A DNA stretch of 64,000 bases, taken from assembly GCA_002452215.1 (NCBI GenBank), contig DKCO01000043.1:3406-67405 (forward strand), written 5' to 3'. The DNA comes from Spirochaetales bacterium UBA6872 (lineage in GTDB: Bacteria; Spirochaetota; Spirochaetia; Sphaerochaetales; Sphaerochaetaceae). The notes under the pieces were generated by a model. It searched no databases, was not told where the DNA came from, and saw only the letters and a program-made list of their open reading frames with translations. A program made the position numbers and the translations under genes. Positions 1,627-14,990 of the stretch are shown in pieces (the stretch's first letter is position 1; each line of letters begins with the position of its first letter).

Positions 1627-3141
1627 ATGGAAAACAAGCTAGTAAAAATCAATTCCAATGATAATGTAGCTGTAGCAATCCAATCTCTGTTCAAAGGAGA
1701 TGTTGTCTCTGTAGATGGTGATACATTCACTTTGCTCTCTGATATCCCAGCAGGACATAAAGTTGCGCTGAAGGACATAGATAAAGGCGAGAAGATAATC
1801 AAATATGGTTATCCAATAGGAGAAGCAAAGGATGATATCAAGAAGGGACAACATGTCCATGCATTCAATATCCATACGCTTTTGTCCGAAAACGCAAGCT
1901 ACCACTATGACAAGAAGATAGCGGATGAATATCTAGAAGAGTTCCAAGCTGACCAAAAACGTTGGGAAGAACATGTTCCATTTATCGATGCATATGAGAG
2001 AAAAAACGGGAGAATTGGAATAAGAAACGCTCTATGGATCGTTCCCACAGTCGGATGCGTGAATGGAATTGCAAAAAAACTTGAAGCATGGGGAAACCAA
2101 GAACTTGGCATTGAGGATGGAGTCCATGCATGGACACATCCTTTTGGATGCTCTCAAATGGGTACAGATCACGAGAATACAAGGAAGATACTTGCCGATT
2201 TGGTGCACCATCCAAATGCGGGAGGCGTTTTGGTTTTGGGTCTTGGATGCGAAAACAATACAATGGACTCATTCAAAGAACTCGTTGGAGAGGTGGATCC
2301 ATCAAGAGTAAAGTTCCTTGTTGCCCAAGAGTCAGAAGATGAAATTACTGATGCGCAGAGTCTTATGCGTAAGATTTCAGAGACAATCAAAAACGACAAA
2401 AGAACTCCTCAACCAATGTCAAAACTTGTAGTTGGCTTCAAATGTGGAGGATCTGATGGTCTTTCTGGAATAACAGCGAACCCTCTTGTTGGGCGCTTTT
2501 GCAATGAGCTTACAGCAATGGGTGGAACAGCTATCCTAACAGAAGTTCCTGAGATGTTTGGAGCTGAGCAAATATTGATGAACAGAGCCACAGACGAAAC
2601 TGTTTATAAACAAATCGTTGACTTGATTGACTCATTCAAGGATTACTTTGTGCAACATCATCAAGTAGTTTACGAAAATCCAAGTCCAGGAAACAAAGCT
2701 GGTGGCATCTCCACTTTGGAAGACAAATCTCTCGGATGCGTGCAAAAAGGCGGGAAGGCACCTGTTATAGATGTTTTGAAGTACGGAGAAAGAGTCAAGA
2801 AAAATGGTCTTAACCTTCTTTGGGGACCAGGAAATGATATCGTTTCTACAACAGCTCAAACAGCTGCAGGAGCAAATATAATCCTATTCACAACTGGAAG
2901 AGGAACTCCACTTGGAGCACCTGTTCCAACTGTAAAGATAGCGACTAATGATCATCTTTCATCTTTCAAGACGAACTGGATTGACTATAATGCAGGCAAA
3001 ATGCTCAAAATCGATCCACAAAGCGTTACAAATGAGCTTATAGCTCTGATCACTGCTATCGCAAATGGCGAGAAGCATACAAAGAATGAGATCAATGGAT
3101 ATGCTGAGATCTCATTATTCAAAGATGGAGTAATACTATGA
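1627..3141 (+). CDS. uxaA: Altronate dehydratase
   Basis: 504-aa ORF with a SAF-like N-terminal domain (NDNVAVA...GHKVAL) and a UxaA/GarD-type C-terminal domain. Its stop overlaps the uxaC start. Confidence 0.85.
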   Translation: MENKLVKINSNDNVAVAIQSLFKGDVVSVDGDTFTLLSDIPAGHKVALKDIDKGEKIIKYGYPIGEAKDDIKKGQHVHAFNIHTLLSENASYHYDKKIADEYLEEFQADQKRWEEHVPFIDAYERKNGRIGIRNALWIVPTVGCVNGIAKKLEAWGNQELGIEDGVHAWTHPFGCSQMGTDHENTRKILADLVHHPNAGGVLVLGLGCENNTMDSFKELVGEVDPSRVKFLVAQESEDEITDAQSLMRKISETIKNDKRTPQPMSKLVVGFKCGGSDGLSGITANPLVGRFCNELTAMGGTAILTEVPEMFGAEQILMNRATDETVYKQIVDLIDSFKDYFVQHHQVVYENPSPGNKAGGISTLEDKSLGCVQKGGKAPVIDVLKYGERVKKNGLNLLWGPGNDIVSTTAQTAAGANIILFTTGRGTPLGAPVPTVKIATNDHLSSFKTNWIDYNAGKMLKIDPQSVTNELIALITAIANGEKHTKNEINGYAEISLFKDGVIL

Positions 3142-4544
3142 AACCATTTATGGGACCGGATTTTCTTCTTGAAACAGAGACAGCAAAGAAACTGTTTCAC
3201 AACTTTAGCGCTGATATGCCAATATTCGACTACCATTGCCATTTGATCCCACAAGAGATTGCCAAGAACAAGAGATTCGATAACATCACAGAAATCTGGC
3301 TTGGAGGAGATCACTACAAGTGGAGACAGATGAGAACATGTGGAATCGATGAAAAATACATAACAGGCAATGCAGATCCTTATGAGAAATTCCTTGCATG
3401 GGCTGAAACAATGGAAAACCTTATTGGAAACCCACTCTACCATTGGACCCATCTTGAGTTGCAAAGATACTTCGGAATCTATGATGTGCTCAACAGAAAG
3501 AATGCCAAGAAGATTTTTGACCAATGCAATGAAAAACTAAAGAATGATCCAGATTTGACAGTCTGGGGAATCATGAAGAAATTCAAGGTTTATGCTGTTG
3601 GAACAACAGATGACCCTGCTGATGATTTAAAGTGGCATAAAGTCATAAAGGAAGAAGGAAAGTGCCCTGCAAAGGTAATACCTTCTTACAGACCTGACAA
3701 AGCTCTTAATATCAACAAAGATGATTTCAAAAATTATGTAGATACTCTTGCAAAGAGTGCAAATATGGAGATCAATAGCGCAAACGATCTTGTCAAGGCA
3801 CTGGAAAAGAGACTCGACTTCTTCGTTGAGATGGGTTGCAAGGCATCTGACCATGCACTTGAGACATGCCCTCATACATTCTGGTCCGATGATTGCGTTA
3901 ACAAGATATTTGCAAAGAAGATGAACTCTGAATGCTTGACAGATGAGGAGATTGATGCTTACAGGACTTTTGTACTTGCAAATCTTGCAAAAGCTTACAA
4001 AAAGAGAAATGTAGCAATGCAATGCCACTTTGCATCAATCAGAGACAACAATGCAAAGATGTTCAAGCTGTTGGGACCTGACACAGGATTCGATGCATCT
4101 CATGACAAGGAACTTGCATATGGAGTATCAAAATTCTTCTCAAAGCTATCTGAGACAGATGATATTCCAAAGACAATCTTCTACTCTCTTAATCCTAAAG
4201 ACTACTACTCTCTTGGGACTTTGATGGGATGCTGGCAAGGCGATGGAGTCAAAGGAAAGATCCAGCTAGGCTCGGCGTGGTGGTTCTGCGATCACAAGGA
4301 TGGAATGGAAGAGCAAATGAAAGTCTTGGCAAACATTGGAATGCTCCCAGCTTTCATTGGAATGCTTACCGACTCAAGAAGCTTCCTCTCCTACTCCAGA
4401 CATGAATACTTCAGACGAATACTTTGCAATCTCATTGGATCATGGGTCGAAAACGGCGAAGTTCCAAATGACGAAGAGATGCTTTCAAATGTTGTGAAAG
4501 ATATCTCGTTTACAAACGCAAAGAATTATTTCGAAGGAAAATAA
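3138..4544 (+). CDS. uxaC: Glucuronate isomerase
   Basis: 468-aa ORF. The N-terminus FLLETETAKKLFHNFSADMPIFDYHCHL matches the conserved UxaC N-terminus. Confidence 0.9.
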   Translation: MKPFMGPDFLLETETAKKLFHNFSADMPIFDYHCHLIPQEIAKNKRFDNITEIWLGGDHYKWRQMRTCGIDEKYITGNADPYEKFLAWAETMENLIGNPLYHWTHLELQRYFGIYDVLNRKNAKKIFDQCNEKLKNDPDLTVWGIMKKFKVYAVGTTDDPADDLKWHKVIKEEGKCPAKVIPSYRPDKALNINKDDFKNYVDTLAKSANMEINSANDLVKALEKRLDFFVEMGCKASDHALETCPHTFWSDDCVNKIFAKKMNSECLTDEEIDAYRTFVLANLAKAYKKRNVAMQCHFASIRDNNAKMFKLLGPDTGFDASHDKELAYGVSKFFSKLSETDDIPKTIFYSLNPKDYYSLGTLMGCWQGDGVKGKIQLGSAWWFCDHKDGMEEQMKVLANIGMLPAFIGMLTDSRSFLSYSRHEYFRRILCNLIGSWVENGEVPNDEEMLSNVVKDISFTNAKNYFEGK

Positions 4545-4545
4545 G

Positions 4546-5322
4546 ATGCAACGAGAGAATGATGAGAAGCAAATAAGCGCTGTTGGACGTACGCTTTCAA
4601 TCCTGGAGGCGCTTAGCAAAGAGGAATCAATAAATCTTGAACGTCTTTCCAAGACAACATCCTTGCCAAAAGCAACACTTCTTAGATTTCTCTCAACTCT
4701 TGTTAGCCTTGGCTATGTATTTAGAGACGATGGAGATAACTACCATCTAACCTTAAAGATGTTCTCCATCGGCTCTAGAAGCCTTAATCATATCAACCTT
4801 GTTGATACAGCCCGTCCATTTACCAAAAAGCTATCAAATGAACTGGGAGAGACTGTACATGTTGGAATTCTGGAAGAAGACAAGGCAATCTACATACTCA
4901 AAGACGAATCAAATTACACAATAAGAATGTATTCGAGAGTTGGTAAAGCAATACCTCTATATTGCACAGCAATCGGGAAGATATTCCTATCATATATGAG
5001 CGAGAAGGATCTTGACTCATATCTTGATACACATCCTCTTAGGCCATTTACGCCAAAATCAATAAAGAACGTTGATGCGCTAAAAGAAGAGCTAAGACTA
5101 GTAAGAAAGCGTGGATGGTCGATTGATGATGAAGAGCATGAAGAGAACATAATGTGCATCGGAGCTCCGATTTTTGATTATACGAATTCTGTTGTTGCAG
5201 CCATCTCAGTATCATTTCCTCTCTTCAGATTCGACAAAGAGAACTTTGAATTGATCATAGATAAAATCACAACAACATCGAATGAGATTTCAAAGCTACT
5301 AGGATACGAAAAGGAAGACTAA
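4546..5322 (+). CDS. IclR-family transcriptional regulator (KdgR-like)
   Basis: 258 aa with an N-terminal wHTH (RTLSILEALS...LSKTTSLPKATLLRFLSTL) and an IclR effector domain. It starts 1 nt after the uxaC stop. Confidence 0.8.
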   Translation: MQRENDEKQISAVGRTLSILEALSKEESINLERLSKTTSLPKATLLRFLSTLVSLGYVFRDDGDNYHLTLKMFSIGSRSLNHINLVDTARPFTKKLSNELGETVHVGILEEDKAIYILKDESNYTIRMYSRVGKAIPLYCTAIGKIFLSYMSEKDLDSYLDTHPLRPFTPKSIKNVDALKEELRLVRKRGWSIDDEEHEENIMCIGAPIFDYTNSVVAAISVSFPLFRFDKENFELIIDKITTTSNEISKLLGYEKED

Positions 5323-5942
5323 TTGCTCTCAAGAACCAGAGCAATATAGCCAATATAACTCTCAGCAAGGAATGCTTGGCCACTTTCTGATGTCGGTGCT
5401 GTCAAAGACAAAGATACAGATGCACTTCCTTTAGCATTTCCTGCCAGCTCTCCATTCAAAAGCTCGTAAGTTCTTGCATCGATGTCGATTTTGCCCAATA
5501 TTGCATATCCACTTTCGTTCTTGCATGGTATTCTTGCATTATCGACTGTTATATTAGCCTTATAATTCAATCTAGCATGAGACCCTTCTGTCTCAGTTAC
5601 TCCGGATGATAGAACAAGACAAGAGTCGTTGGAATCGAACGAATCTGTAGCTTTACTTGAAAGCAGAATAAGCTTAAGTGCAATTGAGCTATAATTGCCA
5701 TGTATATCCCAATTAACATAAAACTTCTCGCTTTCAACAGATGTTTGCGAGTTGGATTCAAGAAGTTGGAATCTCACTTCTTTCAAATCTGTAGTAAAGG
5801 AATCTGGGGAACTGTAAAAACCAACTCTCATTGCTTCAGGCTTCTCAAACCAGAGAGCAATACTCGAATTATTCAATGTAGTTGCTCCTAAAGAGAATAA
5901 AGAAAAAACAAGAATAATCAAAGCAATTGACGGTTTCTTCAT
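5319..5942 (-). CDS. Secreted putative fibre subunit S7 (orphan)
   Basis: Best start is the ATG at 5942 (MKKPSIALIILVFSLFSLGA signal peptide); the ORF track extends to 5999. C-terminal strand is ESYIGYIALVLESN. It shares the VGFYSS and FYVNWDI motifs with S4-S6. Confidence 0.6.
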   Translation of the reverse strand: MKKPSIALIILVFSLFSLGATTLNNSSIALWFEKPEAMRVGFYSSPDSFTTDLKEVRFQLLESNSQTSVESEKFYVNWDIHGNYSSIALKLILLSSKATDSFDSNDSCLVLSSGVTETEGSHARLNYKANITVDNARIPCKNESGYAILGKIDIDARTYELLNGELAGNAKGSASVSLSLTAPTSESGQAFLAESYIGYIALVLESN

Positions 5943-5952
5943 ATTAACCACT

Positions 5953-6489
5953 TCATCCTTCATAGCTGATTGTAACTTTGATTGAACCAGAAAACACATT
6001 ATATTTCCCTACGCCTTGTTTCAATTCATTTGATGGGATTTGCAAAACGATATACTGTGAGCCAGCTATTGGATAATCTCGTCCAGATATATAGATTGTT
6101 GCATTTTTGTTTTCTTTTGAAGAGAGTTTTGTCCCATTTATTGCTAAAGGACTTTGCCAATTTATTTCGATTGTCGAATTGTTTGCTTTCAAAGGTTCAA
6201 ATTCCGAGAGAGTTATAGTTATTGCATTTCTTGTATATACTTTCCACCAGATATAGAAACTTGCTTGACGAAAACTACTATTATCTTGCAGAACAAAATC
6301 AACATAATCCAGCTCAATGCTACTAGTGTCATCGTTTATACTTTTGATTTCTTTTGAGCTGACACCAAAATCTATACCGCTTTTTGCGCCAGCGAAAGCT
6401 ACATCGAGAACATCCTCTCCTAGCTGTATTGAATACAACGATATAGGCAAAACAAACAATATGATTAAAGAAAGAACCCTTTTTATCAT
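5953..6489 (-). CDS. Secreted putative fibre subunit S6 (orphan)
   Basis: Signal peptide MIKRVLSLIILFVLPISLYS. C-terminus is GKYNVFSGSIKVTISYEG. The start abuts the S5 stop with no gap. Confidence 0.6.
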   Translation of the reverse strand: MIKRVLSLIILFVLPISLYSIQLGEDVLDVAFAGAKSGIDFGVSSKEIKSINDDTSSIELDYVDFVLQDNSSFRQASFYIWWKVYTRNAITITLSEFEPLKANNSTIEINWQSPLAINGTKLSSKENKNATIYISGRDYPIAGSQYIVLQIPSNELKQGVGKYNVFSGSIKVTISYEG

Positions 6490-7077
6490 TCAATCTCCTG
6501 TAACATATAACAAAGCAAGTTTTCCAGTTTCTTTGTTCGGTAGTTTCGCAATGTCAGAGATAGCTGCAGTAGCATTGACTCCCAACTTGAAAATCTCAGC
6601 ACAAACGATTTCATCTTTATCGGGGATAAAGTATCCAAAATCATAGTCAGAGTCAAAAAAGGAAGAAGGCTCAACTTGAACTATCTCACGCCCATCATTG
6701 AATGAAGGAAAATCAAAACCTAATTCAAGTACAGAATCATCTTGATACTTGAAGTTCTTGCCAAGCAAATATATCTTCACATCATTGCTTGAGTTGATCT
6801 GATAGTAAATCCTTGGTTCTGCAGAAAAAACCAATTTTTCATTCGTAGAAAGATTATCATCTTGAAGCAAACTAATGCTATTTAGCCTATTAAGACCAAC
6901 AGTATCGACAGAAATAGTTGTTATAGTGCTATCAGTAAAACCAACAACCACTTTGGTATTTTTCTCGTTTGACAAATCCAAGCGCAAGTTAATATTCTTG
7001 CTCTCAGTTTTGGCAGCCCCCAAATTGAAGCTGCCAAATGATATCAACAATAAAAAGTACAGACAAATTCTATGCAT
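6490..7077 (-). CDS. Secreted putative fibre subunit S5 (orphan)
   Basis: Signal peptide MHRICLYFLLLISFGSFNLGAA. The N-terminal alternating strand is INLRLDLS. Also has the VVVGFTDS motif and the C-terminus GKLALLYVTGD. Confidence 0.55.
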   Translation of the reverse strand: MHRICLYFLLLISFGSFNLGAAKTESKNINLRLDLSNEKNTKVVVGFTDSTITTISVDTVGLNRLNSISLLQDDNLSTNEKLVFSAEPRIYYQINSSNDVKIYLLGKNFKYQDDSVLELGFDFPSFNDGREIVQVEPSSFFDSDYDFGYFIPDKDEIVCAEIFKLGVNATAAISDIAKLPNKETGKLALLYVTGD

Positions 7078-7093
7078 TTATAGCTCGTAATAA

Positions 7094-7654
7094 TTAATTT
7101 TTTGCTGTAATAGCAACTGTAATGGTATCTGAATATTCAGAAGCAAGTGTTGCTTTCTCGATATCAGCTTTTAAAGCTGTAAAAGTCATAGGCACAGCAC
7201 CATAATATAGAGCCATATTACTTGAGATATCAAAGCTAATGCCATTTTCCAAATCACCACTAGGCGATACAGAATCTATACCACTATTATCTTGAATTGA
7301 GCCCAATTCCCCGGAATAAGCAATAGAGGAATCACCATTTTTCAATTTTCCACTATTTTGCGATGTTATTTTTATAGAATATTTATTGCTATCGCCTTTG
7401 ATTCTCCACCAGACATATGCATCTTGGTAGCTCATATTTTCAGAGCCAGAAAACAAATGTTCTCCACTTACAAAACTATCGCTTTTTGGAGCATTTTCCA
7501 CCAATTTCGAGGCCCCTGTAGCATCTGTAATCCCAAAACTAGCTTCAGTAGGGATTGTCAACTTAACATCAATTGATGCACCGTTTGCTGTTGGAGCAGC
7601 AAATAACGCTGTGCTCAACGCAAAAATCAATAAGACAAAATAAATCCTTTTCAT
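7094..7654 (-). CDS. Secreted putative major fibre subunit S4 (orphan)
   Basis: Best start is the ATG at 7654 (MKRIYFVLLIFALSTALFAAP), preceded by GGAGAAAAA. The ORF track extends to 7726 through a non-signal N-terminus. N-terminal alternating strand is ASIDVKLTIP. The C-terminus SEYSDTITVAITAKN resembles the G-x-Y-x-D-T-h-T-V terminal strand of chaperone-usher/SCPU pilins. It is the only subunit gene with a sizeable upstream gap (99 nt). Confidence 0.6.
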   Translation of the reverse strand: MKRIYFVLLIFALSTALFAAPTANGASIDVKLTIPTEASFGITDATGASKLVENAPKSDSFVSGEHLFSGSENMSYQDAYVWWRIKGDSNKYSIKITSQNSGKLKNGDSSIAYSGELGSIQDNSGIDSVSPSGDLENGISFDISSNMALYYGAVPMTFTALKADIEKATLASEYSDTITVAITAKN

Positions 7655-7753
7655 TTTTTCTCCGTCTTTTGTGTCATGCTCTATAGGATTTTGCCCACTT
7701 TGACACTCAAGTGAGCATCCTACCATATTAATCTATACTTTTAATTCCTCTTT

Positions 7754-9103
7754 TTAAGTTCCTTCGGATGAAACAACATGGATATATACATCTTCTTTAT
7801 ATCGTCCAGACTCCAAATAGCTTGGTGGAGAATCGATCGAGATCTGAATATCTGTTGAAAGAACAAAATATGTAACATATGAACCTGCAGAATGCTTTAT
7901 CGCACCTTCTGAGTTCCATCCTGAAATTACTTCTGGAGATACAGATGCCCCGACAACTCCATCCGCTTGCGAAAAATATGTTGTTCCATCAAATTCCACA
8001 TATTCCTCATCTTTACCTTTCATATACAGATTGAATCCAAGCGAATTTCTCATAGAAACCAAGCCTCCGCTTTCATCTTTTATTCTTTCATTCACAAAAC
8101 GAAAACGTTCGCCTTGAAGCGTTGGCTTGCTACTGGAGGATGCAAAAATATATATAGAATCAGGTATCTTGCTTTGGTCAGTTTCTTTCCCATAGTTAGC
8201 AACAAAATCGAGTTGAGCTATACTGATTCTTAAATTAACATCATTTTGCAAATCAAGATTCGATGCTGCAGGTAAAGGCTTTATAAACAAGCTCGCTTTA
8301 GATGGTGTTTTCAGAGCCTGATGCTCTATGTAGCCAGAAAATGGAATCGTAAATGCCTTCCCACTTCCCAAAGCCTTACCGTCTTTATCCCTAAGTTGAA
8401 TATGTACAGTAACCATCGCAACATAATCATCTTTTTCTGAAAGAATGTATCTCTTGCCATTATATGTAAGGCTCAAATCATTGTTATCTTCAAATCTACC
8501 GGGAAGAGCAAGGATTACATCGAAAAAGACAGCTGAGCCATCATTGCTGTTATCATCATAGGCAAAGGAAAGCTTTTCATATTGCGACTCCTCAAACGTC
8601 TCGTCGATTTCTATAACCTGAATTAGTTTCTCATCTGAAGAATTGCGTGACTGATAGTGTCTGGATGTCTTTACAATAACAAAAAGCTTAAATGGAACTC
8701 GATAAGCATCATTTGATAGTGATGCCATTTCCAATGCTCCAGTACTTGATTCCACATAGATTGAGAGCTCTCCTCCTTCCAAAGCATTTCGTAGACCAAT
8801 ATCGTCTTCAACAGGATCATCCGAATAACCTCCTGTAAGAACAATATTTGGATCATAGTATTTCCAGTTATTTGCTTGTGCTTTTTCCCATGTTGAATAA
8901 GAGTCATCTGACGGGAAATAGTGTCCACTCCATTTTAATGTATTTCCATTTGCAAGATTTGATCTGTCTGGATAGCAAAGACTCCTTAAATTTATGGCTG
9001 AGGACGCTAATGGAACCAAGTAATAGTTTGAATCGTCAAATTCATAAGCGAAAAGAGATGAAATAAAAAAAGCAGATAAAACAATGAGAATTAAACGTTT
9101 CAT
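7754..9103 (-). CDS. Secreted two-domain protein S3, putative tip adhesin
   Basis: 449 aa with signal peptide MKRLILIVLSAFFISSLFA. The pilin-like terminal motif occurs twice: DDYVAMVTVHIQLRD mid-protein and SGRYKEDVYIHVVSSEGT at the C-terminus. ATGA overlap with S2. Confidence 0.55.
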   Translation of the reverse strand: MKRLILIVLSAFFISSLFAYEFDDSNYYLVPLASSAINLRSLCYPDRSNLANGNTLKWSGHYFPSDDSYSTWEKAQANNWKYYDPNIVLTGGYSDDPVEDDIGLRNALEGGELSIYVESSTGALEMASLSNDAYRVPFKLFVIVKTSRHYQSRNSSDEKLIQVIEIDETFEESQYEKLSFAYDDNSNDGSAVFFDVILALPGRFEDNNDLSLTYNGKRYILSEKDDYVAMVTVHIQLRDKDGKALGSGKAFTIPFSGYIEHQALKTPSKASLFIKPLPAASNLDLQNDVNLRISIAQLDFVANYGKETDQSKIPDSIYIFASSSSKPTLQGERFRFVNERIKDESGGLVSMRNSLGFNLYMKGKDEEYVEFDGTTYFSQADGVVGASVSPEVISGWNSEGAIKHSAGSYVTYFVLSTDIQISIDSPPSYLESGRYKEDVYIHVVSSEGT

Positions 9104-9801
9104 TCTTCTGTCCTTATGTGTATTGTTACTCTTGATTTGTATTCTCCTGGTGGTACACTATCGGGATCATTCTTAATTTTATTTGTAGCATCTTCTGTGA
9201 AGCAAAACTTTATATAACCAGATGCATTACCTATAAAACCAGTTCCTGCATTTTCAACAAGCGCCGTCATACTTACGTATTCACCTTCATTTTGAGTTCC
9301 CCAGTCTGGGTATTCCTTGACTCTTGGAATCAAAAGATATGTACCTTTGGATGAACCGTCGTATATAAATAAAGCTTCTTGGCTTAATCTGTTTCCATTC
9401 GAATCCCAATAAGATAGGATAAACTCGAAGCCAAGCGAATATAAAAGCTCAGCTTTTTTATTTGAATCAGACAAAGGCTCGGCTTCTATCATTACAGAAA
9501 ACATTGCATTTGATATGAATTTCCAGTTTGCTATTATTCTTCCGTAGCCGGAACTAAACAGTCTGGTAACATCAATATCTTTATACCAAGTCGATTCGTC
9601 CTCAATATCGAATGGCATCCCCATTCTAAATTCAGGATCGCTTTGTGCTGGAATTCTTTCAATGGATACTTCCGTTATTTCTTTGTAGCCAGCTTGCAAC
9701 GAAAGTGGTTTTGAGACCTCAGTTGTATATATAACAGCTGCAAATATGGAATGAGAAAGGAGAAGAGTCATTATTACCAAATACTTTTTCATATCAATCA
9801 T
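9100..9801 (-). CDS. Secreted putative fibre subunit S2 (orphan)
   Basis: Signal peptide MKKYLVIMTLLLSHSIFAA. C-terminus is PGEYKSRVTIHIRTEE. It overlaps both neighbouring genes, consistent with translational coupling. Confidence 0.55.
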   Translation of the reverse strand: MIDMKKYLVIMTLLLSHSIFAAVIYTTEVSKPLSLQAGYKEITEVSIERIPAQSDPEFRMGMPFDIEDESTWYKDIDVTRLFSSGYGRIIANWKFISNAMFSVMIEAEPLSDSNKKAELLYSLGFEFILSYWDSNGNRLSQEALFIYDGSSKGTYLLIPRVKEYPDWGTQNEGEYVSMTALVENAGTGFIGNASGYIKFCFTEDATNKIKNDPDSVPPGEYKSRVTIHIRTEE

Positions 9802-10645
9802 CAGACCTCAATGTAATTGTCACAGGAAGAACATATACTCCAGGCACAGCTTTGACATAATCCGAAGAGTCAAGCGTAATTCCAACCACTCCAGATGCAG
9901 ACCAAATCCCATCGTCAATATCCTCATTTGGAACAATCTCATTTGCTGCATCAAGTACTTCAAAAGAGAACTTTACATCAAATGATGGAGAGAAATTTGA
10001 TGTTTTTGTTATATTTCCTCTGAGGGTATTTACATCTGAGGCAAAACTATCATCATACCCTGAAAGCTTATACACATAGCCTTTTTTGCCATTGCTATAT
10101 TTAACTTCCTTTATGTCTATTCCAGATTCATTTGACGTCGTAGTTGTCAATGTCTCAGATGGTCGAGAGAAATTATAGTTTATATAGTGCACAGAAAACG
10201 AAAGTCCAACTTGATTTGTATCCGTTGCCTCCGAGTATGTCGGATCCATTAAGTCAATATTATCGATTCCACCTTCTATTCTTGAAAATGGTTTTATCTT
10301 ATTTCCTCCGAATGCAAATGATAACGTGTAACTTCCTTGCGAGCATCCATAGACTCTGTATGAAAAGACAGCATGAGTCGAGAAAAATGTTGTATCACTA
10401 TGAGAAACAACTCCAAGGTAGTTGTCTATCGATGGAGTTATATTTATTTTCGAGTTTTCATTAAGGTTTTCCAATGTATTCGATATTGCATCTGTAATCT
10501 CAAGCTTGACAGGTTGACCATCAAGAAGATCCTTGCCAAGCTTGTATGCTGCAATCTCAAAACCAAAATCATAGTCCTGAGAAAAACAAGGAACAGCTGT
10601 CATGAATATCATACATAATGCTAATGCACAATTTCTTAATTTCAT
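9794..10645 (-). CDS. Secreted putative fibre subunit S1 (orphan)
   Basis: Signal peptide MKLRNCALALCMIFMTAVPCFSQ. C-terminus is PGVYVLPVTITLRSDD. ATGA overlap with the usher stop. Confidence 0.55.
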   Translation of the reverse strand: MKLRNCALALCMIFMTAVPCFSQDYDFGFEIAAYKLGKDLLDGQPVKLEITDAISNTLENLNENSKINITPSIDNYLGVVSHSDTTFFSTHAVFSYRVYGCSQGSYTLSFAFGGNKIKPFSRIEGGIDNIDLMDPTYSEATDTNQVGLSFSVHYINYNFSRPSETLTTTTSNESGIDIKEVKYSNGKKGYVYKLSGYDDSFASDVNTLRGNITKTSNFSPSFDVKFSFEVLDAANEIVPNEDIDDGIWSASGVVGITLDSSDYVKAVPGVYVLPVTITLRSDD

Positions 10646-13600
10646 AAAGCCTCCTTAAATCCAGGATAGAGCAAATCCCAAAATTCATCTGAAGAAAGGG
10701 CTTCAGAAAAAACAAGTCTCTTACAACTGGAGTATTGTTCAGGAAGCTTCATCCCGCTTATTTCATCAATTGCTTCGATATAGACATTCATTTCATTTGG
10801 ACTGTTTTTTTCACTTATCTCTATCAAAGCTAAAGCCCATCCATCATCATTTGGAATATCAAATCCATAGAGCCCTTCAGGAAGGTCTGAAAGGATTATT
10901 CTTCCGCTTTCATCGCTGAAGACATATCCATCTTCATAGAGTTTAACATCAATCTCAAAATCTCCAGATATTGAAACTAGGTAAAGCGGAGATGAGTCAT
11001 TTATCCAAGGATTCCCATTGATATCTGTTACTATAGCAGTCATTGCATAAACTGGGTTTGATTCCAGTGTATAAACAAATCCACGACCATTTGTCTTCGG
11101 TAGATAAAGTGCAAAAGAGCGAGGACCAGAGATTGAATCCTCACTTGTGCTGTATATCATAATTTGGTTGTTCCTTACACTTGAAACAGCTGAATAAAGT
11201 GACGTAGAGAAGAACTTATTAAGTTTTGATGTACCAAATGCCCCACTATATCCAATGCTTAAATCATTCCCTTTCAATTCGCCTTTTTGCTTAATTAGCA
11301 AGTACGATTGTCCGATCGATGAAGAAAGCGCAAAATAACCATCTGCAAAAATAGTGGATGTTGACAATGACAAATTACCACTCAATCTATTCAAATCAAG
11401 AGAGGAAGATATTCCAAACCCGAAATTGAAATAATCTGTAGAAGTTGCATATGATGCATAAAAGTTGCTATTTCTAAAGGATTTCATCTTTTCAAAGCTG
11501 TTATATCCAGGCATGTCGATTGAGCTTGATAAAGAGCTTTTCAACGAATGCATATTGAAATTCACCTTTGTGCTTTTTTCATTCAAAGATGATGATACAT
11601 TCCCTGAACCAAATGAGACTGATGCGTATACACTTGCAGATGCTCCAACGTTGCCCGCAAAATTGCCACTCAAATTAATAGATGTCGATAAATTTATATT
11701 CCTCTGAGGAGAAAACCCCAAAGAAAGATAAGACGTATAAGAACTCGACTTGAACACATCTGTATATAAATTGAAATTCGAACCGATGCCATAGCTGAGC
11801 AAGCCGAGTTTGCCACTTGTTGAAATCCCAACATTAAAAACAAATCGATTGCTATTCAAAATATCAGGAGGTGATGAGAAACCCAAACTTGCATTTATCG
11901 AAGAAATGTGCTTTTTTGACAAATTTGCTTGATGCGATACCCGTACATAAATCTCCGGAAAATGATAGTTACCATCTGATAGCTTTCTCTGATAAAGATT
12001 TAAATTATAACGAGTTGTCCCAATCGAGCTTGCTTGAGTCAGCTCGAAATTAACCTTGCCTTGCATATTCATTTGATTCTTATCTGTTGGCAAATTCGAA
12101 ACAGCGATTGCACCTCGAAGCAGCAAGGAATTCGAAAGTCCATATGAGTAATCAAATGATAAAGAAAGATTCCTCGGATCATATTGATAGTATTTTCCAC
12201 CAAGACTAAAACCAATTGAACCTTCTCTTATTTTATCCTTCGACAAAAGCGTTTCTCTCCCAATTGCCAGACTGAGGTTATAATAGAATTCCCCGGGATA
12301 AAGCAAAGATGAGTAATATGAAAATTCATGTATTATCTCTTTTGGTGCACTTCCATCTGTTGGAGATACTTTAATAAGAACTCTGTTGACGCCTGTATAA
12401 AGAACAAAATCCTCAAGTTTGTACTTTCCAGGGTTCAAGATCTTGCTATACAAAACCCTATCATCGTTTATAACCTCTACAAGCGACTCTTTTTCGACAG
12501 TCAACTCAGCCTCATATGGACTCTTCCTCTCATAGCTATCATTTGAATATGACAAATTCTTTGAAAGTCTTATTCCTATAGGTGTCCCTAGTGGCGAGAT
12601 AATACCTGGCGAGATGCATCCCCAGCTTAAACGAAGCATTTTTTCTTCAAAATCGCGTCTGAAGGTATAACTCGAAAGCGAAAAATCCAAATCCCTATTG
12701 TTGAAATTCAGATAATACGAAAAATCAAGGAATATATCATACATAGACATCGTATTTGTTGAATACAATGAAACATCATAATCCCAGATCTTTTTTTGAT
12801 ATAAATACCAGCCAAAAGATGTGTTATATGAAGATTTGAATGAAAATACAGCAGGACTTATTATCTCAGCTCCAGCTAGCGGTTGTTCATCATATCTTGA
12901 ATAAGATGGTGATAAACTAATCGAAGCAAATGGCATATCATCAAGGTCAAATGATAAGTAAATTTTGTAATTATTTGCTTCAAATGACGACCTGACACCA
13001 AATTTTTCCAAATCTTCAAGAGAATAAGAGCTGCTTTGTGTATTGAAAATCCTCTCATAAGCCTCTTCTGTAAGATTGTTTTCAAGAATAAATCTCAAAT
13101 CATCAATCGCTATATATGGGATTTGGGAAAGCATCTCTACAGAAACAGAGCCTCGATTCTCTCCATTCACGTAAAGATTCATATAGTAGTTTCCGTCCTC
13201 AAAAAGAAGCAAATCCTCACCAGATATATAGAAATCAGCCCAGAAATCATCATCTTGCCAAAGCTCTGTAGTATTGATTTGAAATACCATATTACTATCA
13301 TCTATTGCTTTCTCATCACTCTTGGCAGGGGAAAGAATGGCTTTGTTTTCGTTGCAAAAATTTATCAAAAAAACAAATAGGTCTGCCATTTCATCTTCGC
13401 TGAATGTTTTATCAAAAAGCACTGTAAGTGTCTTTGCATCCAACGAAAAATCAAAACCAGCCGTCTCTGTATAGTATTTTTCTATAAAGCAAGAGACAAA
13501 ATTGCATATCTGGTCATCGGTGCAAAAATGTGGAAATAGAACCAGGAGTTTATCTCTAAAGCCATCAAATAGCAAAACATCATAAGCCAAATCGAGTTCC

Positions 13601-13932
13601 ATGGATACATGGAAAGCAAGAGGCGCGTTTCCTTCATTAACAATCTCACGCTCTTGCGAACTCAAACCCCAGCTCTCCGAATATTCTTCTTCAAGATTGT
13701 TTCCATTGCCATTTCCAGTTGGCTTTTCTAAGGACAGCATCTTAACAGATTTTGCATCAAGAACAGCATTTGATTGAGGAGTTTTTTCTTCATGCGATTC
13801 CATTTCATCTTTTGTAAAGAAAAAAACATCATCTCCCTTTTCATACAAAGCAATAGCAAAGGCAAACACTGTTGAAAGCGCTATTTGAATGCCAAGAAAA
13901 ATGCATAAGAATCCCTCTATTCTCCTTTTCAA
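10642..13932 (-). CDS. Fimbrial usher-like outer-membrane protein with long N-terminal extension
   Basis: 1096 aa, TTG start preceded by AAGGGAGAG. Usher-like landmarks: NLYVNGENRGSVSVEMLSQIPYIAIDDL (the h-VNG-x motif of usher N-terminal domains); LNPGKYKLEDFVLYTGVNRVLIKVSPTDGS (plug-like P-G-x-[FY]-x-h-x-D ... DGS motif); several hundred residues of alternating S/Y/N/G-rich amphipathic strands; and a C-terminal DING...YEDGYVFSDESGRIILSDLPEG Ig-like tail. Confidence 0.65.
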   Translation of the reverse strand: MKRRIEGFLCIFLGIQIALSTVFAFAIALYEKGDDVFFFTKDEMESHEEKTPQSNAVLDAKSVKMLSLEKPTGNGNGNNLEEEYSESWGLSSQEREIVNEGNAPLAFHVSMELDLAYDVLLFDGFRDKLLVLFPHFCTDDQICNFVSCFIEKYYTETAGFDFSLDAKTLTVLFDKTFSEDEMADLFVFLINFCNENKAILSPAKSDEKAIDDSNMVFQINTTELWQDDDFWADFYISGEDLLLFEDGNYYMNLYVNGENRGSVSVEMLSQIPYIAIDDLRFILENNLTEEAYERIFNTQSSSYSLEDLEKFGVRSSFEANNYKIYLSFDLDDMPFASISLSPSYSRYDEQPLAGAEIISPAVFSFKSSYNTSFGWYLYQKKIWDYDVSLYSTNTMSMYDIFLDFSYYLNFNNRDLDFSLSSYTFRRDFEEKMLRLSWGCISPGIISPLGTPIGIRLSKNLSYSNDSYERKSPYEAELTVEKESLVEVINDDRVLYSKILNPGKYKLEDFVLYTGVNRVLIKVSPTDGSAPKEIIHEFSYYSSLLYPGEFYYNLSLAIGRETLLSKDKIREGSIGFSLGGKYYQYDPRNLSLSFDYSYGLSNSLLLRGAIAVSNLPTDKNQMNMQGKVNFELTQASSIGTTRYNLNLYQRKLSDGNYHFPEIYVRVSHQANLSKKHISSINASLGFSSPPDILNSNRFVFNVGISTSGKLGLLSYGIGSNFNLYTDVFKSSSYTSYLSLGFSPQRNINLSTSINLSGNFAGNVGASASVYASVSFGSGNVSSSLNEKSTKVNFNMHSLKSSLSSSIDMPGYNSFEKMKSFRNSNFYASYATSTDYFNFGFGISSSLDLNRLSGNLSLSTSTIFADGYFALSSSIGQSYLLIKQKGELKGNDLSIGYSGAFGTSKLNKFFSTSLYSAVSSVRNNQIMIYSTSEDSISGPRSFALYLPKTNGRGFVYTLESNPVYAMTAIVTDINGNPWINDSSPLYLVSISGDFEIDVKLYEDGYVFSDESGRIILSDLPEGLYGFDIPNDDGWALALIEISEKNSPNEMNVYIEAIDEISGMKLPEQYSSCKRLVFSEALSSDEFWDLLYPGFKEAL

Positions 13933-13954: not shown

Positions 13955-14695
13955 TCACTTTGAATATGAATAGTCGTATTTTATTTGAACAGTAAAACTA
14001 GATGCCTTCTCTATTTCCTTTGGAATCTCTAAAGAAATGCAAACGGAAGAATCTGTAAGAAGATTCACTCCCTCAACAGAGCTAACATCTTCATCTGATA
14101 GAGTATAGCTAGAACCATCATCTCCTTTTAATGTAACACCCAATGAATTAAGAATCTGGTGCACGCTTCCAGTATTCTTGAGTGTTATAACAAGCCTGTC
14201 GTCAACTTTACTAACATACCCCTCGACTCGCTCTATTACTTTGCTAGGGGCAACATAAGCCGCTGTACTATAAACAAACAGAAAGTTAATCATCTGTCCT
14301 TCTGATGTGACAGATGCACCTCTAGAGTATGGTATTTGCTCAGAAACAATCCTAAACGCCATCTCCTTCGTCACTGTCTTAGGCCCTCTGTATTGAACTC
14401 TGACAATTTGAGTTGTCGCTGGCTTTATAATCATCTTTGAAGGCTGTATTGAGAAATATTGCATAGCTGGTTCTGTATACTCATTTCCGTTTAAATCTAT
14501 ATATCTTTTATTGGCGCTTATTTCGATTGCAATAGGAAAATCCGAATCATTTGTTAGTTTATAAGTTTTTACAGATTCCACTCCGCTCGGATAGTAGGTT
14601 GCATTCAATGGTGACAATTGGTAAGCATGTACATTCGTAGCTAGAAAAAATAATCCGAGCGTAACGATAATTCTATTGAAAACTTTTTTCGTCAT
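13955..14695 (-). CDS. PapD-like periplasmic pilus chaperone
   Basis: Best start is the ATG at 14695 (MTKKVFNRIIVTLGLFFLATNVHA signal). The ORF-track start at 14725 is a TTG inside an inverted repeat. Domain 1 pattern: YKLTNDSDFPIAIEI...FSIQPSKMIIKPATTQIVRVQY...EMAFRIVSEQIP (F-x-h-x-P ... h-x-PG/A-x-x-Q-x-h-R-h ... E-x-x-F-R-h-x-x-x-E-I-P). Domain 2 pattern: LVITLKNTGSVHQIL (h-x-N-x-G-x-x-H). Confidence 0.65.
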   Translation of the reverse strand: MTKKVFNRIIVTLGLFFLATNVHAYQLSPLNATYYPSGVESVKTYKLTNDSDFPIAIEISANKRYIDLNGNEYTEPAMQYFSIQPSKMIIKPATTQIVRVQYRGPKTVTKEMAFRIVSEQIPYSRGASVTSEGQMINFLFVYSTAAYVAPSKVIERVEGYVSKVDDRLVITLKNTGSVHQILNSLGVTLKGDDGSSYTLSDEDVSSVEGVNLLTDSSVCISLEIPKEIEKASSFTVQIKYDYSYSK

Positions 14696-14721: not shown

Positions 14722-14751
14722 ACAAAATGTAGTGTATTTTTTACATTTTGT
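14722..14751 (-). promoter_or_regulatory. Perfect 10-bp inverted repeat (ACAAAATGTA-N10-TACATTTTGT) in the 5' leader of the chaperone-usher operon
   Basis: Arms at 14722-14731 and 14742-14751 are exact reverse complements. The repeat sits 27 nt upstream of the chaperone ATG, so it is either an operator or an RNA hairpin. Confidence 0.4.
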
Positions 14752-14834
14752 CTAATTTTGTATTTATGTCAATATAAATCGCAAAAAGATATCCTTTTCA
14801 TGCTATTCAGCATAAAAGGATTGTTGTTATATAT

Positions 14835-14863
14835 ACCTTACCCCCCCCCCATAAAGATGTCAA
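14835..14863 (-). promoter_or_regulatory. Candidate promoter of the chaperone-usher operon with a G10 tract in the spacer
   Basis: The minus strand reads TTGACA (14863-14858), then TCTTTATGGGGGGGGGG (17 nt), then TAAGGT (14840-14835). Confidence 0.5.
14841..14850 (-). repeat. Homopolymeric tract, C10 on plus strand and G10 on the coding strand of the downstream operon
   Basis: Counted directly: 10 consecutive C at 14841-14850. It is the only long G/C homopolymer I noticed in the window. Confidence 0.9.
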
Positions 14864-14990
14864 GAGTCAATAATATGACGCAGTAGAAATGTCAAAAGCA
14901 TCAGATGAAATTTGACCTAAGGCACTTGTAAACAATAGTATTTTCTTTCTTCTATGCAGAATTTGATTGCACATTGCTTGTTTATGACGA

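Follow-up and report, generated by a model that had tools for sequence, protein, structure and literature searches.

The 64-kb stretch of spirochaete DNA analysed here (the window) had a GC content of ~40% and carried, on its minus strand, a nine-gene operon that begins with the gene for a PapD-like pilus chaperone. Upstream of this gene, a run of ten G residues (G10) lies between a -35 hexamer and a candidate -10 hexamer, and it is this tract, as a candidate phase-variable element of the operon promoter, that is considered below. The promoter and the operon comprise the following features:

14858..14863, minus strand: -35 hexamer TTGACA, 6/6 match to the consensus
14851..14857, minus strand: fixed spacer part TCTTTAT
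14841..14850, minus strand: G10 homopolymer, GGGGGGGGGG (C10 on the plus strand), the proposed slippage-prone spacer element
14835..14840, minus strand: candidate -10 hexamer TAAGGT (TAnnnT), 3/6 match to TATAAT
13955..14695, minus strand: PapD-like periplasmic pilus chaperone, 246 amino acids (aa), with signal peptide, first gene of the operon
10642..13932, minus strand: outer-membrane usher by fold match, 1096 aa, very divergent
5319..10645, minus strand: seven further genes with little or no gaps, encoding proteins of 283, 233, 449, 210, 195, 178 and 226 aa

Reading the minus strand from 14863 to 14835 confirmed the arrangement TTGACA-TCTTTAT-G10-TAAGGT given in a preliminary description of this DNA, with a TAnnnT hexamer and a spacer of exactly 17 nucleotides (nt), ten of which are G. 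The distance to the chaperone ATG, put there at about 140 nt, was 139 nt from the end of the -10 to the ATG at 14695, and the tract length of 10 was recovered in 15 of 16 independent assemblies of the window species. TAAGGT agreed with TATAAT only at positions 1, 2 and 6, which are the three most conserved positions (T1, A2, T6). A homopolymer of about eight or more residues between recognisable -35 and -10 elements, the hallmark of promoter-spacer switches, is therefore present, with a -10 that matches at only 3/6. The tract was the sole run of at least seven G or C in the window, for which ~0.01 would be expected from base composition. The -35 hexamer TTGACA was kept in 15/16 assemblies of the window species, sample L010 having TTGGCA. 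A second, overlapping -35-like hexamer, TTGACT, occurs at 14865-14870 (minus strand), 7 nt upstream of TTGACA (TTGACTcTTGACA); in L010 both copies were altered, to TTGTCT and TTGGCA, respectively.

Other readings of the promoter were also considered. The stretch TATATATAAC, which starts at the last T of TAAGGT, 5 nt past the tract, had been put forward as an alternative -10 at shorter tract lengths; this was rejected, since a tract of about G5 would be needed with the same -35. Sigma-54 and sigma-28 promoters were weighed against their consensus sequences and rejected as well. An extracytoplasmic function (ECF) sigma factor reading (GAAA-N16-GTA) is possible for some relatives, and would leave the spacer logic unchanged.

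Retention and length variation of the tract in relatives

Scanning a single genome for each species yielded 80 loci encoding relatives of the chaperone. The closest set consisted of 41 loci (L011-L051), with chaperones 50-62% identical to that of the window and a locus GC content of 35-55%. A pure G8-G12 tract was found on the coding strand, at most 200 nt upstream of the chaperone gene, in 29 of these 41 species, and in none of the 39 more distant loci at that position. Within the 336 kb of the closest set, 29 of the 32 G or C runs of at least 8 fell in that 200-nt stretch, which makes up 2.4% of the sequence. A paralogous second operon (L078) was devoid of the tract, while the orthologous operon of the same metagenome-assembled genome (MAG; L019) had G9. 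With the window included, tract lengths were G8 in five loci, G9 in nine, G10 in ten, G11 in five and G12 in one. A metagenome pattern scan using the flanks and a variable gap added only one extra locus.

A functionless tract, whether a product of chance or an artefact of assembly, has next to no probability. Assemblies are error-prone at homopolymers, yet only ~0.01 such runs are expected per window, the tract recurred in 16 independent assemblies of the window species, and an equivalent tract was found at the same position in 29 other species; this explanation is effectively refuted.

In an alignment of the loci centred on the tract, strong flanking conservation was confined to the T (28/30) and the A (25/30) directly 3' of it, with weaker signals at a T in position 6 and in an A-rich patch 7-11 nt 5' of the tract. 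This pattern is expected if a TAnnnT -10 element directly adjoins the tract, with a degenerate -35 of the TTGAAA/TTGACA type upstream by a few bases, and the conserved T-A fits the start of a putative -10 element. A TTGACA-like -35 at a fixed distance from the tract was sought across species, and only the A-rich patch was found. In the loci with a good -35, the spacer was 16-17 nt long despite a differing division between fixed bases and G residues, as follows (5' fixed bases + tract + 3' fixed bases):

Window: 7+10+0, spacer 17
L133: 6+8+3, spacer 17
L023: 1+10+6, spacer 17
L027: 1+9+6, spacer 16
L014 and L016: 8+9+0, spacer 17

The sister species L133 was syntenic with the window (ilvB, a 222-aa gene, metallophosphoesterase, chaperone), with a chaperone 67% identical. 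Its promoter, TTGACA-17-TAAAAT, matched the consensus at 11/12 positions, carried an extended -10 TG and had G8 within the spacer; no other promoter-like site was present in the 315-nt intergenic region. In most relatives, the distance from the tract to the ATG was only 59-87 nt, and these short leaders hold a conserved transcribed stem (see below), so that a promoter away from the tract is hardly conceivable.

These data also bear on whether the tract could instead be transcribed from further upstream and act in the RNA or during elongation, through polymerase slippage, pausing or a G-rich element of the 5' untranslated region (5'UTR). There is a precedent in Treponema pallidum tprL, whose tract acts otherwise than by spacing (PMC7864442). 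However, no conserved promoter-like sequence was found upstream of the tract in relatives, the conserved T-A right after the tract fits the start of a -10, the window and L133 tracts lie precisely inside 17-nt spacers, and no Rfam family was found in the region. An action at the RNA level is thus considered very improbable.

At the same spot, several loci had interrupted remnants of the tract followed by TAC (GGGGAGGGG-TACTAT, GGGAGGGGG-TACTAT, GGGTGGG-TACTTC and GGGCG-TACCAT), which would be the usual fate of a contingency repeat that has become locked.

Variation within species was assessed with contigs from independent samples that encode exactly the same chaperone protein. Tract lengths were distributed as follows:

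Window species, 16 samples: T-G10 in 11, TT-G10 in 4 and G9 in 1 (L007), giving spacers of 17, 18 and 16 nt
Candidatus Ornithospirochaeta stercoripullorum, 8 samples: G7 in 2 (possibly the same reads assembled twice), G8 in 1, G9 in 4 and G10 in 1
P0104 species, 6 samples: G9 in 1, G10 in 3, G11 in 1 and G12 in 1, with identical flanks
P0120 species, 9 samples: G9 in 8 and G10 in 1

The 18-nt spacer of four window-species samples was due to an extra T (TCTTTATT) in the fixed part. The length variation anticipated in the preliminary description was therefore found between samples (G7-G10, G9-G12 and G9/G10), with otherwise identical or near-identical flanks and on assembly consensus calls only. 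As a control, A/T runs of 6-8 in the same contigs were invariant save for two exceptions, both in these regulatory regions, and no variation was seen among A/T runs of 6-8 in coding regions. Species P0070, P0044 and P0073, which had been chosen for within-species sampling, had an interrupted tract or none and served as negative controls: interrupted tracts (GGGAGGGGG and variants) were always 9 nt long in 10 samples, and the two tract-less species showed no length change. The length differences, set beside the invariant controls, mark the G tract as an apparently hypervariable site at the level of assembly consensus.

The two varying A runs were one in the leader of the window species (A6/A7) and one directly 5' of the G tract in the P0120 species (A7/A8/A10; L109-L116). 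In the P0104 and P0120 species, the contigs of L117, L118, L138 and L140 start at the tract or within ~10 nt after it, a pattern that would fit assemblies breaking off where tract lengths are mixed or where the homopolymer is poorly covered. The only G9 sample of the window species, L007, had a 1-nt insertion at a non-repeat site (~4161) in the usher gene, splitting it into open reading frames of 139 and 772 aa; coverage of this contig was ~7x, and the insertion may be an assembly error or reflect a genuinely inactivated operon.

The leader region and alternatives to a tract-driven switch

Between the tract and the chaperone ATG, and upstream of the promoter, the window contained the following further features:

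14791..14821, minus strand: stem-loop of 13 pairs and one bulge, followed by AUAUCUUUUUG (U run), close to or at the predicted transcript 5' end
14745..14772, minus strand: second sigma-70-like site, TTGACA-16-CAAAAT, 10/12, listed by the promoter scan as a rival or additional promoter
14737..14742, minus strand: leader run of A6, with A7 instead in samples L004 and L009
14991..16016, minus strand: metallophosphoesterase, 341 aa, the upstream neighbour, outside the conserved operon

Several points weigh against a switch at the tract. The generic promoter scan, which needs at least 4/6 matches per hexamer, did not list the G-tract site, because the weak TAAGGT -10 (3/6) falls below this threshold; the site it preferred, TTGACA-16-CAAAAT, sits 90 nt nearer the gene. 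A stable hairpin with a U run lies between the two sites, so that in the window species transcription begun at the G-tract promoter might end prematurely. The consensus of this species was G10 in 15/16 samples, which implies that switching, if it occurs, is too rare to shift most consensus calls, and all length calls came from short-read assemblies, which are error-prone at G homopolymers. Across species, the -35 was mostly poor and at no fixed distance from the tract, and in some relatives promoter function may rest on an activator and not on the spacing of the hexamers.

The last points would suit a tract that serves as a conserved, static promoter or operator element, such as a GC-rich spacer that tunes melting or a regulator site, with length differences that are noise or neutral drift. 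Poor conservation of the -35 suggests activator dependence, in several species a regulator adjoins the operon (LytTR response regulator, WYL protein or Crp/Fnr-like regulator), a direct repeat resembling a Pho box lies upstream in the lineage with interrupted tracts, and the near-constant G10 consensus of the window species is also in line with a fixed element. Nevertheless, single species spanned four-step length ranges (G7-G10 and G9-G12), while A/T runs and interrupted tracts were invariant. A protein-binding site should conserve its length and flanks, whereas only the homopolymeric nature of the tract was conserved, and a pure run of 8-12 nt would be hard to keep over ~30 diverged species unless the run itself were selected. 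A static element is thus regarded as unlikely.

The leader bears on a different possibility, in which the operon of the window species is transcribed mainly from TTGACA-16-CAAAAT (14772-14745) and the G-tract promoter is vestigial or makes an RNA of ~40 nt that ends at the hairpin and U run; alternatively, the hairpin would be the terminator of the metallophosphoesterase gene. The proximal site matches the consensus at 10/12 positions, the stable hairpin followed by AUAUCUUUUUG separates it from the tract, and the stretch from the upstream stop codon (14991) to the tract showed no other terminator-like structure. The window leader folded with a minimum free energy of -27.3 kcal/mol (z = -4.1 relative to shuffled sequences). 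However, no counterpart of the proximal site was found in L133, a species whose only candidate is the G-tract promoter, the 59-87 nt leaders of relatives are too short to hold one, and across species it was the tract, not the proximal site, that was conserved. The hairpin was not called by the generic terminator scan, and L133 has a comparable hairpin right after its -10 that lacks the U run, which fits a 5'-terminal stabilising stem-loop. The hairpin at 14791-14821 could serve to stabilise the 5' end, to attenuate transcription or to terminate that of the upstream gene. A main role for the proximal promoter appears quite unlikely. Rfam searches gave no family in the whole window at gathering thresholds, nor in the intergenic region at E values up to 1, and no known riboswitch or leader is therefore present there.

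On balance, the G10 tract is probably a slippage-driven switch of the pilus operon promoter. The candidate slipped-strand switch of the preliminary description drew support from retention of the tract in ~30 species, from the L133 promoter and from the differences in length between samples. Under this model, the genes for the chaperone, the usher and the seven secreted proteins would be headed by a sigma-70-type promoter in whose spacer G10 is the variable part, with transcription expected to start just downstream of TAAGGT. At G10, TTGACA and TAAGGT would stand 17 bp apart, the optimum for RNA polymerase. Slipped-strand mispairing at replication would add or remove one G, giving a spacer of 16 or 18 nt, or further from the optimum, and would change both the distance between the hexamers and their rotational phasing. 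Promoter activity would thus depend on tract length, and transcription of the operon would be turned down or off in a heritable yet reversible manner. With switching within a single population, piliated cells would always be mixed with non-piliated or less-piliated ones.

The leaders of many relatives contained elements that were absent from the window species and L133. A box, CAGCGTTTAGRGAA, was common to many of them 10-24 nt after the tract, and a conserved 5'UTR structure began 25-40 nt after the tract. In this structure, CAUGUCUU pairs with RRGACRUG just before the AUG, enclosing a variable inner hairpin and covering the 3' part of the Shine-Dalgarno sequence; 8/8 pairs were kept in 11/11 species, with one-sided changes only. 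Leaders with this architecture occurred in L016 (3877-3946), L017 (3925-4009), L030, L036, L038, L040, L043, L045, L048, L051 and L020. The stem suggests a second, translational layer of control in these relatives.

Two other arrangements were observed. In L033 and L024, the nearest tract was a C9/C8 run (G9/G8 on the operon strand) in the last codons (...STPPHSV*) of a divergent Crp/Fnr-like gene, which in L033 lies at 3095-3796 on the minus strand, with the tract at ~3106-3114, ~895 nt upstream of the chaperone gene; the arrangement was the same in L024. This tract could mediate translational phase variation of the regulator rather than act in a promoter. The lineage with interrupted tracts (L025 at ~3860-3910, L074 and L091-L100) had 9-nt remnants, GGGAGGGGG, GGGGAGGGG or TAGAGGGGG, ~60-95 nt upstream of the chaperone ATG, together with a direct repeat, TTGTCATACTTTTGTCAA (TTGTCAT-ACTT-TTGTCAA), that ended 11 nt upstream of the -10 (TACTAT or TACCAT). 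The repeat resembles a Pho box or a site for an OmpR-family regulator that would replace the -35.

The chaperone-usher operon and its host

The first gene of the operon encodes a protein that passed the Pfam PapD_N cutoff narrowly (25.5 bits against a cutoff of 23), and its alignment profile gave weak matches to EcpB and CsuC. Its AlphaFold2 model (predicted local distance difference test (pLDDT) score of 70), compared with the Protein Data Bank (PDB) using Foldseek, retrieved essentially only pilus chaperones. CsuC, from the archaic Csu pili, ranked first, followed by FimC, CupB2, Caf1M and CfaA, and PapD was also matched; these matches had a probability of 1.0 but low template modelling (TM) scores of ~0.3. 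Both the Pfam match and the model thus point to a PapD-like chaperone with two immunoglobulin-like domains.

The 1096-aa product of the second gene had no sequence match in Pfam or the PDB, even when a 14-sequence profile was used, and the window protein gave no match to the Pfam Usher family; one homologue had a weak match to it (PF00577). By contrast with these sequence searches, the AlphaFold2 model (pLDDT 67.5) aligned across ~900 columns with full-length FimD (3rfz, E = 8e-30) and PapC (7lhg, E = 3e-23). A match to an outer-membrane usher, a type of protein defined by a 24-strand barrel with a plug and by domains at the N and C termini, was thus obtained by fold, not by sequence, and the protein is, on its predicted structure, an usher. 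It carries an N-terminal extension of ~245 aa, with a transmembrane helix at residues 2-31, a disordered stretch rich in Pro and Glu, and a small alpha/beta domain at residues 119-202.

The seven downstream proteins all had signal-peptide-like N-termini, and none had a Pfam match. The 210-, 195- and 178-aa proteins were weakly paralogous (E of about 0.003-0.005), and the 233- and 449-aa proteins had a C-terminal stretch in common. It is plausible that these seven secreted proteins include candidate pilus subunits or adhesins. The surface-fibre operon of the preliminary description accordingly corresponds to a chaperone-usher system by the predicted fold of its chaperone and usher; as modelled, it is a very divergent chaperone-usher pilus system, and its product would be a surface fibre.

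The upstream neighbour varied among species: the metallophosphoesterase of the window was replaced elsewhere by tRNA_edit, a LytTR response regulator, a WYL protein or a Crp/Fnr-like regulator. Proteins of the window organism were found solely in metagenome assemblies and MAGs, and the nearest named relatives were 'MAG: Spirochaetes bacterium', Candidatus Ornithospirochaeta species and Sphaerochaetaceae from human, chicken and other gut samples. The host is thus a member of an uncultured gut clade of Spirochaetota. A search of the literature for pili or fimbriae of the chaperone-usher type in spirochaetes and in Sphaerochaeta gave no relevant result, and such pili seem to be undescribed in Spirochaetota.

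Relation to known phase-variable promoters

The nearest known case is T. pallidum tp0126, which encodes an OmpW homologue. According to the passages on this gene in PMC7864442, which describe Giacani et al. (2015), a poly-G tract lies between its -35 and -10, with an optimum at a 17-nt spacer, and the treponemal poly-G precedent named in the preliminary description was accurate in this respect. Tract lengths in T. pallidum vary from about 7 to 12 (PMC7864442). As far as tp0126 is described there, the two systems share a host in Spirochaetota, a poly-G tract in a sigma-70 spacer and a gene for an envelope or surface component. They differ in that the window organism belongs to another family and to an uncultured clade of gut commensals, not pathogens, with a genome of ~40% GC. 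T. pallidum is GC-rich and has many poly-G tracts, whereas the window tract was the lone G or C run of at least 7 in 64 kb. Where those passages present tp0126 as a single outer-membrane protein gene, the tract here heads a nine-gene chaperone-usher operon and has been kept over ~30 species.

In Neisseria meningitidis porA, a poly-G tract also lies between the -10 and -35, and transcription changes, through the spacing, when a single G is lost or gained (PMC3899988; PMC7864442). Unlike the present system, porA is a porin gene of a proteobacterial pathogen, and there is no homology of sequence or context. At the level of sequence, the device described here belongs with the porA/tp0126 class, having a tract in the spacer and length polymorphism.

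Simple repeats also occur in chaperone-usher fimbrial promoters, in Bordetella pertussis fim2/fim3 and Haemophilus influenzae hifA/hifB, where they cause transcriptional phase variation through promoter geometry (PMC3899988). The window operon resembles these in that chaperone-usher genes would be controlled by a repeat, and differs in that a G tract heads a whole chaperone-first operon. In B. pertussis, the poly-C tract of fim2/fim3, unlinked major-subunit genes, is said in work by Willems from 1990 to lie between the site of an activator (BvgA) and the -10. In H. influenzae hifA/hifB the repeat is a TA dinucleotide in a divergent promoter (van Ham, 1993), in contrast to the mononucleotide G tract here.

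As to the pilus system itself, the archaic (sigma-clade) Csu system of Acinetobacter and the classical FimC/FimD and PapD/PapC systems are the closest known relatives by fold: the chaperone fold was nearest to CsuC and the usher aligned with FimD and PapC, and the neighbourhood of many small secreted proteins is also like that of Csu-type and classical loci. Unlike in Csu, Fim and Pap, sequence similarity was at or below detection and the usher has its N-terminal extension of ~245 aa; the gene order chaperone-usher-subunits and the host phylum, Spirochaetota, also set the window operon apart.

The type of mechanism is thus already known from tp0126 and porA. What is new is the host clade, the cargo (a sequence-orphan chaperone-usher system), the breadth of ~30 species and the presence of a lone tract in a genome of 40% GC. 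A broader reading, to which we give about an even chance, is that an entire uncultured, non-pathogenic clade of gut spirochaetes (Ornithospirochaeta/Sphaerochaetaceae-like) has kept a poly-G contingency switch on one orthologous operon over the divergence of ~30 species. The operon would then be an undescribed, sequence-orphan branch of chaperone-usher systems and the first in Spirochaetota, and its control would be layered, through promoter geometry set by the G tract, a 5'UTR stem that sequesters the ribosome-binding site in many species, and a C tract in an adjacent Crp/Fnr-like regulator gene in one lineage. Selection would have acted on mutability itself in commensals, and not in pathogens alone.

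Homopolymer switches in promoter spacers are textbook knowledge in a handful of pathogens. The present data point to the same device in commensal gut spirochaetes known only from metagenomes, kept at one operon over dozens of species, and to a chaperone-usher family that sequence-based annotation has missed. Assemblies of these genomes will break or be miscounted at the tract, which itself offers a convenient marker when phase variation in metagenomes is studied at the level of reads. Retention of the repeat across species provides unusually clean comparative evidence for selection on the repeat itself, and the phenotype it predicts is variable piliation in organisms that are not yet cultured.

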